Shown here: positions 41,758 to 46,066 of the stretch, one piece after another
Layout of the letters: each line of letters starts with the position of its first letter
How positions within the stretch are numbered: the stretch's first letter is position 1
NCBI RefSeq assembly: GCF_002854065.1
Contig: NZ_CP024147.1
DNA length: 64,000 nt
Source of the DNA: Escherichia coli
GTDB lineage: Bacteria; Pseudomonadota; Gammaproteobacteria; Enterobacterales; Enterobacteriaceae
Strand: one strand, 5' to 3'
Notes under the pieces: model-generated
Databases searched by the model: none
What the model saw: only the letters and a program-made list of their open reading frames with translations
What the model was told of the DNA's origin: nothing
Translations under genes and position numbers: made by a program

Positions 41758-41833
41758 TGGCTCCTCTGACTGGACTCGAACCAGTGACATACGGATTAAC
41801 AGTCCGCCGTTCTACCGACTGAACTACAGAGGA
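41758..41833 (-). tRNA. asnW: tRNA-Asn
   Basis: Reverse complement is identical to the 76-nt asnT sequence; TTGACA-17-TAATAT promoter on the minus strand at 41852-41880. Confidence 0.95.
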
Positions 41834-41933: not shown

Positions 41934-43421
41934 TTATTCCGACACAGCTGGCTTTTTTTCACACTTTTGCGGTTCGGGTCGAGGGTATTTCCACAGCCAA
42001 CGTCCAGTAACCATTCGCCAGTAAAACAGCACGGCCCGCACAGCCCAGTCGGCAAACATTCCCATCCAGACACCAACCACACCCCAGCCAAGCATGATGC
42101 CCAGCACATAACCGACGACAACCCGGCAACCCCACATGCTCAACATAGAAACCCACATAGCGTAACGGGCGTCACGAGCCCCCTTAAATCCAGCGGGTAG
42201 CACCCATGAAGCGGACCAAATAGGCATAAATAAAGCATTTAGCCAAACCAGAATCACAACGACATGTTTAACCTGTGGATCCTGGGTGTAAAACGATGCC
42301 ATAACCCCGGCAAAGGGAGCCGTTAGCCAGGCGATGGCCGTTAATCCAAGAGTGGAAAGCCAGAACACATGCCGCAACTGAATCTCTGCTTGCGCTATCT
42401 GCCCTACCCCCAACCTTCGGCCTGTAATGATCGTAGAAGCAGAGCCGAGCGCACTTCCGGGTAAGTTGATAAGAGCCGCAATTGAAAACGCGATAAAATT
42501 TCCGGCAATAACACTGGTCCCCATCCCGGCAACGAACATTTGGGTTAATAACCGACCACTGGTAAATAACACTGATTCGACACTCGCTGGAATACCAATC
42601 CCCATGACTTCCCAGATAATGCTAAAATTCAGCGGTTTAAAATAGCTCTTTAACGAAATCCTTAGCGCAGGATTAAAACCAATCGCCAACACCCACAAAA
42701 TTGCAACTGCGCCAATATAACGAGAAATGGTTAAACCCAACCCAGCCCCGACAAATCCCAGTCCCGGCCAGGAGAAAAGGCCGTAAATCAATATGCCGCT
42801 AATAATAATATTAAGAATATTCAGGCTACCGTTAATCAGTAGCGGTATTTTCGTATTCCCTGCACCACGAAGTGCCCCGCTACCAATTAGAGTGATGGCA
42901 GCTGCTGGATAACTGAGTACCGTCAGCTCCAGATAAGTCAACGCCAGTGCTTTAACTTCTGTCGTGGCATCACCCGCGACGAAATCAATAATTTGCTCGC
43001 CAAAATGATGAATAAGCGTTGCCAACAGTACGGCAAACAACGTCATGATCACCAATGACTGCCGCGTCGCCACCCTCGCTCGTCGTCGATCCCGCTTACC
43101 GAGACTAAATGCCACAACGACAGTAGTACCAAGATCGATAGCAGCAAAAAAAGCCATAATGACCATATTGAAGCTGTCCGCCAATCCCACGCCGGCCATC
43201 GCATCTTTTCCCAGCCAGCTGACCAGAAAAGTGCTCAGAACCCCCATCAACAGGACACAGGCATTCTCCATGAAGATAGGAACAGCAAGCGGGGTTATCT
43301 CGCGCCAGAACAACACTTTGTAGCTCTTGCGTTTAGCGTGCCAGCGAGTGCCGTGAACAACCTGGCGTAAAGCAGAGGAGATATTCAAAGCCGACCTTAA
43401 TTGCAGAAAGTGAAACCACAT
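41934..43421 (-). CDS. yeeO: MATE-family efflux transporter YeeO
   Basis: 495 aa from MWFHFLQLRS…; 12-TM MATE architecture; the ORF track extension to 43577 is probably not translated. Confidence 0.85.
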   Translation of the reverse strand: MWFHFLQLRSALNISSALRQVVHGTRWHAKRKSYKVLFWREITPLAVPIFMENACVLLMGVLSTFLVSWLGKDAMAGVGLADSFNMVIMAFFAAIDLGTTVVVAFSLGKRDRRRARVATRQSLVIMTLFAVLLATLIHHFGEQIIDFVAGDATTEVKALALTYLELTVLSYPAAAITLIGSGALRGAGNTKIPLLINGSLNILNIIISGILIYGLFSWPGLGFVGAGLGLTISRYIGAVAILWVLAIGFNPALRISLKSYFKPLNFSIIWEVMGIGIPASVESVLFTSGRLLTQMFVAGMGTSVIAGNFIAFSIAALINLPGSALGSASTIITGRRLGVGQIAQAEIQLRHVFWLSTLGLTAIAWLTAPFAGVMASFYTQDPQVKHVVVILVWLNALFMPIWSASWVLPAGFKGARDARYAMWVSMLSMWGCRVVVGYVLGIMLGWGVVGVWMGMFADWAVRAVLFYWRMVTGRWLWKYPRPEPQKCEKKPAVSE

Positions 43422-43537
43422 TTCAAATAATGAGGGAGAATCAGCAAAGCTGCAAAGATTTTCGCCAACAAATTGTCTGCAAATGCAACAAACTGTTGAT
43501 AGAAACGGCAAACAGTTGGGGAATTTAAAAATCGGGT

Positions 43538-43565
43538 TTGACAAAAGATTTTTCGCCGTTAAGAT
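43538..43565 (+). promoter_or_regulatory. asnU promoter (sigma70 -35/-10)
   Basis: TTGACA, 16-bp spacer, TAAGAT upstream of asnU. Confidence 0.55.
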
Positions 43566-43581
43566 GTGCCTCAACAACGAT

Positions 43582-43657
43582 TCCTCTGTAGTTCAGTCGG
43601 TAGAACGGCGGACTGTTAATCCGTATGTCACTGGTTCGAGTCCAGTCAGAGGAGCCA
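43582..43657 (+). tRNA. asnU: tRNA-Asn
   Basis: 76-nt sequence identical to asnT. Confidence 0.95.
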
Positions 43658-43666
43658 AATTCCTGA

Positions 43667-43695
43667 AAAGCCCGCTTTTATAGCGGGATTTTTGC
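43667..43695. terminator. Bidirectional terminator between asnU and cbl
   Basis: AAAAGCCCGCTTTTATAGCGGGATTTTTG: hairpin flanked by an A-run and a T-run. Confidence 0.6.
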
Positions 43696-44645
43696 TATAT
43701 CTGATAATCAATTTCCTCTTCACTGCTTTCCATCACCTGCCGCTTGATATCCTCAACTGACAGTCCTGCATTACAAAGTTCCAGAAAGCGCCAGACATAG
43801 TTACGCTGAAGTTGTCCTCGCTTCAGTCCCAACCAGACAGTATTAGCATCAAAAAGATGCCGCGTATCCAGGCGGATTAAATTCTCTTCCTCTTGTTCGC
43901 CACTGGATTGCTCGGCAACTAATCCGATCCCAAGCCCAAGAGCAACATAGGTTTTAATGACATCAGAATCCTGCGCACTTAATACAATATCTGCCAGCAA
44001 ACCTTTGCGGGCAAATGCGTCATCAATACGTGAGCGCCCCGTAATCCCCTGTCGGTAAGTGATTAACGGCCACTTCGCTATTGATTCCAGCGTCAATGGT
44101 GAAATTTGCGTCAAGGGATGATCGTGTGGAACAAGCAAACTATGGTGCCAACGAAACCACGGGAAGGCGACGAGCTGCGGGTCATTACTCAAACGCTCGC
44201 TGGCGATACCAATATCAGCTTCGCCATTTTGCAACAATGTCGCAATTTCCTGTGGCGTCCCCTGGATTAGCTCGAGCCGAACCTCCGGGAAAAGTTCGCG
44301 AAAAGCTTTAATGACCTCTGGCAAGCTATAACGTGCCTGAGTATGCGTCGTTGCAATAGTGAGAACGCCAGACGTATCGTTGGTAAACAGGTCTGCAAGC
44401 CGACGAACATTACTGGCTTCATTCAGAATACGTTCTGCAATGACCAGTAATGCTTTGCCCGGTTCAGTCATGCCCAGCAGTCGCTTACCTCGTCGAACAA
44501 ATATTTCGATGCCAAGTTCATCCTCCAGTTCCCGAATATGACGGCTGACGCCTGACTGTGAGGTAAAAAGCATATTCGCAACCTCTGTCAGGTTGTAATC
44601 CTGACGTGCAGCCTCGCGGATTATCTTTAGTTGTTGGAAATTCAC
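43695..44645 (-). CDS. cbl: LysR-family regulator Cbl (sulfonate/sulfur utilisation)
   Basis: 316 aa ORF (MNFQQLKIIREAARQDYNLTEVA…) recognised as Cbl. Confidence 0.9.
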   Translation of the reverse strand: MNFQQLKIIREAARQDYNLTEVANMLFTSQSGVSRHIRELEDELGIEIFVRRGKRLLGMTEPGKALLVIAERILNEASNVRRLADLFTNDTSGVLTIATTHTQARYSLPEVIKAFRELFPEVRLELIQGTPQEIATLLQNGEADIGIASERLSNDPQLVAFPWFRWHHSLLVPHDHPLTQISPLTLESIAKWPLITYRQGITGRSRIDDAFARKGLLADIVLSAQDSDVIKTYVALGLGIGLVAEQSSGEQEEENLIRLDTRHLFDANTVWLGLKRGQLQRNYVWRFLELCNAGLSVEDIKRQVMESSEEEIDYQI

Positions 44646-45990: not shown

Positions 45991-46066
45991 TCCTCTGTAG
46001 TTCAGTCGGTAGAACGGCGGACTGTTAATCCGTATGTCACTGGTTCGAGTCCAGTCAGAGGAGCCA
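45991..46066 (+). tRNA. asnV: tRNA-Asn
   Basis: 76-nt sequence identical to asnT. Confidence 0.95.

Follow-up and report, generated by a model that had tools for sequence, protein, structure and literature searches.

The protein considered here has its closest described relatives in the YeeO/EmmdR subfamily of MATE transporters, represented by the equivalog model NF007562. We analyzed a stretch of Escherichia coli DNA of 64,000 nucleotides, called the window below, in which the core of the yeeO product does not differ in any way from that subfamily and is matched by the model from end to end. The score is 908.9 bits (cut-off, 465 bits), and the alignment pairs positions 2-469 of the 470 in the profile with residues 67-534 of the 547-aa form of the protein. 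On the same numbering, the Pfam MatE domain (PF01554, E = 1.1e-55) is found in two stretches, the first being residues 100-260, and TIGR00797 covers residues 100-504. The K-12 record names the product an FMN/FAD exporter, and we take the activity from this name and from the literature cited with it. The records differ solely in their annotated N-terminus, which yields proteins of 547, 495 or 484 aa, and the family model favours the shortest of these; all three versions of the exact window protein have been deposited publicly.

On the regulatory side, the closest described elements are the operators of the IclR-type regulators PlaR (YiaJ) and KdgR. Shimada et al. published the PlaR box as ATnTGAAACnnnGTT[T]CAnTT, and the yiaK-plaR operator overlaps the yiaK promoter (PMC6958661). 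In the same publication, in vitro gSELEX with PlaR gave a high peak 'between yeeO and asnU', while its Northern-blot section does not report a result for yeeO (PMC6958661). Furthermore, yeeO was predicted to be a member of the KdgR regulon by Rodionov et al. 2004, as cited in PMC6127512.

Two other known situations are relevant to the choice of a start codon at this locus. Leaderless mRNAs, such as that of lambda cI, are translated from a 5'-terminal AUG. Over-extended calls of the longest ORF are a common start-site error, and yeeO likewise presents a stop-free in-frame run, headed by a chance Shine-Dalgarno-like motif and lying over the promoter of a neighbouring gene. It departs from the usual over-extended call in that even the 'corrected' start chosen by PGAP seems to be off by 11 codons, because an ATG within a conserved operator happens to lie in frame.

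The window shows the K-12 gene order (NC_000913.3), asnW-yeeO-asnU-cbl-nac. ARAGORN identified tRNA-Asn genes at 41758-41833 (minus strand), 43582-43657 (plus strand) and 45991-46066 (plus strand). The second of these, asnU (tRNA-Asn(GUU); Rfam tRNA model, 72.6 bits), is divergent from yeeO. The longest yeeO ORF in a mechanical list of open reading frames runs from 41934 to 43577 on the minus strand, starts with TTG and encodes 547 aa. The original prediction was thus right that the frame stays open to 43577 and comes within 5 bp of asnU: the gap between the two is 4 bp (43578-43581). An in-frame ATG (43421-43419, minus strand), which opens the sequence MWFHFLQ, lies 52 codons 3' of TTG 43577, and the frame upstream of this ATG is open for 57 codons, that is, into the antisense of asnU. 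The ambiguity as to the start, also noted in that prediction, is a real feature of public records. In NC_000913.3, b1985 is annotated at 2058203..2059846, which is the 547-aa form, and UniProt P76352 presumably holds the same form. PGAP annotates a 1488-nt (495-aa) CDS from ATG 43421 in both other strains that we examined.

To compare start sites we fetched 80 orthologous loci, ranging from Escherichia to Pectobacterium, and counted 78 species-level sequences. The conserved start of yeeO is most likely neither of the two annotated codons but the TTG at 43388-43386 (minus strand), on the evidence of sequence conservation. The proposed CDS (41934-43388, minus strand, with its stop at 41936-41934) encodes a MATE-family transporter of 484 aa that begins MNISSALRQ. 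TTG occupies this position in 77 of the 78 species and in all 76 full-length genes, and in 39 species it is the sole in-frame ATG, GTG or TTG of the open frame. For control we took 32 other conserved leucine columns of the alignment (leucine at least 95% conserved). There, TTG accounts for 0-24% of codons, and the commonest codon, whichever it is, for 28-80%. TTG seldom serves as a start codon and is a weak one, which counts against the assignment. The sequence TAAGG, which resembles a Shine-Dalgarno motif, lies 6 nt upstream of it (43399-43395, minus strand). TAAGG with the same 6-nt spacer was found in 48 of 77 species, and TAAGG, AAGG or AGG at 6-7 nt in 17 more; this motif accounts for an apparent conservation of the amino acids 'LRS' just 5' of the TTG.

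The signature of a coding sequence sets in at the same codon. Downstream of TTG 43388, variability at the three codon positions is 0.59/0.41/1.29, and the alignment is free of insertions and deletions. In support of this start, NF007562 begins within about 2 residues of it, since, on the 547-aa numbering, profile position 2 falls on residue 67 and the TTG on residue 64. Alignments to solved MATE structures place query residues 92-99 opposite residues 4-37 of the structures themselves; an N-terminal tail of 28-35 residues fits these alignments and a tail of 91-98 residues does not. In addition, KPN_02447 of Klebsiella pneumoniae MGH78578 is annotated at 1437 nt, exactly the length expected of the form that starts at the TTG. 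Nothing on yeeO appears in the TRAINSPOTTER, Cappable-seq or ROSE supplements. A paper on cloning of the Klebsiella yeeO gene was considered as well and set aside as uninformative, as it reports no phenotype and its construct spans both candidate starts.

The sequence immediately upstream of this start is also conserved, in the manner of a protein-binding site. The stretch ATGTGGTTTCA is conserved as DNA and belongs to a 21-bp palindrome, ATTTGAAATGTGGTTTCACTT (43428-43408, minus strand), which contains ATG 43421 and follows the published PlaR box pattern; we regard it as an IclR-type (PlaR/KdgR) operator. In common with known operators of PlaR and KdgR, its 21 bp form a palindrome in exact agreement with ATnTGAAAYnnnGTTTCAnTT, and, as at yiaK-plaR, the site overlaps a promoter, here a predicted one, together with its predicted +1. 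It differs at box position 9, which is T at yeeO and C in the published consensus. The 64 kb of the window contain no other match to the PlaR box, and this one has 0 mismatches; by chance, 0.16 matches with at most 2 mismatches would be expected, and 12 of 100 shuffled sequences had at least one. Of the 78 species, 68 retain the core, TGAAA-N5-TTTCA, with no more than 1 mismatch. Spacing between operator and TTG ranges over 33-37 nt among species and is therefore not kept to multiples of three.

Overlapping the upstream end of the palindrome is a putative sigma-70 promoter for yeeO (43455-43427, minus strand), made of TTGCAG (43455-43450), a 17-nt spacer and CATTAT (43432-43427). Among 68 species compared, 66 retain TTGCAG, 62 CAT[C/T]AT and 61 the 17-nt spacer, whose sequence varies. 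Two conserved hexamers separated by a variable spacer of 17 nt are the pattern of a -35 and a -10 element, and would place the start of transcription at about 43421-43419. In E. coli, the hexamers match 7 of 12 consensus positions, which explains why our promoter scan did not call this element. A sigma-54 promoter (TGGC...TTGCA, about 43467-43451) was considered in the same region and rejected: in an alignment inspected by eye, the GG is not positionally conserved, and GG-to-GC spacing is 13 in E. coli.

These observations lead us to a model that we consider likely, in which yeeO and asnU are transcribed divergently from a control region of about 190 bp (43389-43581) that the K-12 annotation counts as coding. 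On the plus strand, a strong promoter of tRNA type, TTGACA-16-TAAGAT (43538-43565), drives asnU. On the minus strand, the conserved and weak promoter-like element TTGCAG-17-CATTAT would begin the yeeO mRNA at about 43421-43419, that is, within the palindrome, so that a repressor bound to the latter (43428-43408) could block transcription initiation and thereby repress yeeO. The leader of this mRNA would measure about 33 nt and include the TAAGG Shine-Dalgarno motif, and translation in E. coli would begin 6 nt past this motif, at TTG 43388, to produce the 484-aa transporter. Several parts of this picture are already available in databases or in the literature, namely the 484-aa form, the KdgR prediction and the binding of PlaR. 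The model gives the earlier predictions for the KdgR and PlaR regulons a defined operator, placed where yeeO transcription would begin. It also gives room to the PlaR gSELEX peak, which was described as lying 'in the spacer'; under the K-12 annotation this spacer measures 4 bp.

An alternative is that translation starts at ATG 43421, as PGAP has it, and produces 495 aa, with the ATG serving either as the main start in E. coli or as a second, leaderless or near-leaderless start beside the TTG. We find this doubtful. PGAP picked this codon in the two strains examined, and all four E. coli sequences compared (the window and three others, L001-L003) keep the ATG open and in frame with the gene. 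With a +1 predicted at 43421-43419, its A could be the very 5' end of the mRNA. However, only 25 of the 78 species have the ATG open and in frame; in most, it lies in another frame or runs into a stop, and the gene nevertheless stays intact. It reads ATG-TGA or ATG-TAG in Kosakonia, Superficieibacter and some Enterobacter. Indels of 1-2 nt just 3' of the ATG put it out of frame in Escherichia albertii, several Citrobacter, S. arizonae, Buttiauxella, Cedecea and others. In E. albertii, for example, a net -1 indel separates the ATG from the reading frame, and the 484-aa gene from the TTG is intact and 91% identical. In a single 'E. coli' sequence, the species representative L008, a stop interrupts the ATG form at its seventh codon. 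We did not rely on it: its allele is present in 0 of 5,426 complete genomes and its C-terminus is shorter as well.

The 33 nt between the two codons (43421-43389, minus strand), which form codons 1-11 of the 495-aa form and the predicted short leader of yeeO, contain indels and in-frame stops in many genera, and their entropy is flat across codon positions (1.21/1.21/1.19). When only sequences that have the ATG are considered, the third-position signature is still lacking (0.75/0.55/0.67), although with 10 codons this comparison has low power. Conservation of the ATG itself is accounted for by the operator half-site TGAAAT-G of which it is part, and no Shine-Dalgarno motif precedes it, because the bases at that place are those of the -10 element. 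The suggestion in the original prediction that MWFHFLQ is where the conserved MATE protein starts therefore does not hold: this codon lies in an operator, and conservation of the protein begins at TTG 43388. The PGAP records probably carry 11 spurious residues. It should be noted that the case against the ATG is a cross-species one; as the frame between ATG and TTG is intact in E. coli, data from E. coli alone cannot separate the two codons.

Support for the ATG also comes from Klebsiella. A phosphoproteome of K. pneumoniae NTUH-K2044 includes the phospho-His peptide MLFQH(0.78)FSLR, assigned to YeeO (PMC5445275). The ATG is in frame in this organism, and the peptide corresponds to the N-terminus of the ATG-type form; as the residue preceding it is Glu, it is not a product of tryptic cleavage. 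This is a single phospho-His identification, in a membrane protein of low abundance. If it is correct, the ATG is used at least in Klebsiella, and a leaderless mRNA may be the means, given that the ATG stands at the predicted +1.

We may also hypothesize, as an unlikely variant of our model, that yeeO has a dual start. Where the operator-embedded ATG is in frame (E. coli, Klebsiella and some Citrobacter), a leaderless mRNA would begin with this codon, which would act beside the TTG and its Shine-Dalgarno motif; in lineages with ATG-TGA or ATG-TAG, the transcript would instead bear a minimal start-stop element at its 5' end. Two YeeO isoforms, 11 N-terminal residues apart, would result. The likeness to lambda cI is that ATG 43421 would also stand at +1, a position that is predicted only. 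The differences from known leaderless mRNAs are that the yeeO ATG is not conserved in frame and that a canonical Shine-Dalgarno motif with a TTG is found 33 nt downstream.

Compared with TTG 43388 and even with ATG 43421, the K-12 reference form, in which 547 aa are translated from TTG 43577 on an mRNA that starts inside or beyond the asnU antisense, appears very improbable. It agrees with an open frame and with the annotation of NC_000913.3. Furthermore, a GAGGA motif lies 4 nt upstream of TTG 43577; this motif, however, is the antisense of the 5' end of the tRNA. Kim et al. 2012 mapped a 5' end at U00096.2 position 2057895 (minus strand), equivalent to position 43602 (minus strand) of the window, and attributed this end to yeeO, giving the gene 25 nt of leader, in agreement with its location 25 nt upstream of TTG 43577. 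We rejected this end as weak support. It comprises 7 reads, lies inside the asnU antisense and is not preceded by a promoter-like motif; in addition, it was assigned relative to the existing 547-aa annotation and is thus not independent evidence.

The 52-codon extension itself (43577-43422, minus strand) has the properties of non-coding divergent intergenic DNA. A frame at least 52 codons long stays open in 9% of dinucleotide-preserving shuffles of this stretch (39% GC), so that the open run is not statistically remarkable; at least 45 codons separate the upstream stop from the first ATG in 5 of the 33 long frames of the window. A divergent tRNA-Asn gene about 160 nt upstream of yeeO is present in 26 of 34 sampled ortholog loci, but in spite of this conserved layout and spacing, stops close the 547-aa frame in most genera, and a start at least 60 codons upstream of the anchor is available in only 15 of 78 species. 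Coding periodicity is absent: for the 12 species with an open long frame, entropy by codon position in the extension is 0.41/0.37/0.40, compared with 0.34/0.19/0.82 inside the gene in the same species. TTG 43577, which sits between the asnU -10 element and the tRNA, is replaced by CTG in three other Escherichia lineages. Finally, neither NF007562 nor the solved MATE structures leave room for 63 residues beyond the form starting at TTG 43388.

Conservation in the extension is of another kind. The blocks conserved across genera are the reverse complement of the -35 and -10 elements of asnU, whose promoter (TTGACA-16-TAAGAT, 10 of 12 consensus positions) lies inside the extension on the opposite strand and is the only promoter-like match that the scan returned between 43250 and 43750. 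Regions upstream of asnU, asnV and asnW are paralogous, as their alignment shows: they share TTTGACA, a spacer of 16-17 nt, TAAnAT and a GC-rich discriminator, and the similarity extends to about 100 nt upstream. Most of the extension thus matches DNA that is plainly non-coding at the sister tRNA genes. The same scan reported a terminator-like hairpin at 43580-43553 (minus strand); with 4 GC pairs of 12 and an overlap with the asnU promoter, it was taken as a chance occurrence.

We conclude with high confidence that the 52-codon extension is non-coding and not translated, as initially proposed, and the 63 N-terminal residues specific to the K-12 reference YeeO are almost certainly never made. 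The proposal that the extension is a 5' untranslated region is right as to translation and needs correction as to the region: this is a divergent asnU/yeeO promoter region, and most of it is probably absent from the yeeO mRNA. Analyses that treat 43389-43581 as coding will miss the asnU/yeeO control region, and the annotated start affects expression constructs, tagged clones and predictions of topology or structure. The case is an ordinary start-site mis-annotation built from known parts; it helps the curation of b1985 and does not reveal a new kind of biology.

A true start further downstream and nearer the first transmembrane helix, at GTG 43316, TTG 43313 or ATG 43274, is as improbable as the K-12 reference form. 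All three could serve as starts in the E. coli frame, and neither the Pfam nor the TIGR MatE domain sets in before residue 100 on the 547-aa numbering. However, the codons are not conserved as starts (GTG or TTG is present in a minority of species only), and the 26 codons that separate them from TTG 43388 already show amino-acid conservation and third-position periodicity and are spanned by the NCBIfam equivalog model.

A last observation concerns the short leader that would precede TTG 43388. Rfam matches were to tRNA only, and the leader thus showed neither a riboswitch nor any other known RNA element. Together with the initiation region, it folds less stably than 197 of 200 shuffled sequences (z = +1.64).

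The TTG at 43577, the start of the 547-aa reading of the MATE transporter gene yeeO, is preceded on the minus strand by GAGGA (within CAGAGGAATCG, window 43578-43587). This motif resembles a Shine-Dalgarno sequence and is the antisense of the 5' end of a tRNA-Asn, that of the divergent gene asnU; it must likewise be antisense to all other asn tRNA copies. The resemblance probably contributed to the gene finders' choice of the 547-aa start. A 5' end supported by seven reads, at window 43602 on the minus strand, lies antisense within asnU and was assigned to yeeO by Kim et al. 2012. No promoter-like motif was found upstream of it in a promoter scan of 43250-43750, and the end could stem from antisense transcription at a low level or from cbl read-through, or be an artefact.

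In other genera, the ortholog alignment reveals that the ATG embedded in the IclR-type operator is directly followed by TGA or TAG at loci from Superficieibacter, Kosakonia, a soil Proteobacteria MAG and an Enterobacteriaceae MAG (L024, L025, L028-L031, L041 and L074). The two codons make up a minimal start-stop where the yeeO transcript is predicted to begin, some 36 nt ahead of the conserved TTG, the proposed yeeO start. In E. coli SCPM-O-B-8794 (L008), codon 7 of the yeeO ATG form, the 495-aa reading from the operator ATG, is a stop. Counted from the TTG, the protein has 474 aa in this strain and 480 aa in Escherichia sp. MOD1-EC7003 (L007), versus 484 aa here, which makes both C-terminal length variants.

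Three tRNA-Asn(GUU) genes (41758-41833 on the minus strand, 43582-43657 and 45991-46066 on the plus strand) fall inside 4.3 kb, flanking yeeO and cbl-nac, and an alignment shows paralogy among their promoters and the regions upstream. Among sampled ortholog loci, 20 of 34 have a tRNA-Asn on both sides of yeeO. The yeeO-asnU intergenic region contains a 13-bp palindrome, CAACA-N3-TGTTG (CAACAGTTTGTTG, window 43486-43498, minus strand), which is kept across genera and reads CAACAATTTGTTG in many of them; part of it also occurs upstream of the sister genes asnV and asnW. The palindrome may be an upstream activator site of asn-tRNA promoters or a second regulator site for yeeO. As a guess, Fis is one candidate for the activator. 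The asnU-cbl interval holds a GC-rich hairpin (CCCGCTTTTATAGCGGG, window 43671-43687, plus strand) bordered on each strand by T-runs; it is probably a bidirectional terminator serving asnU (plus strand) and cbl (minus strand).
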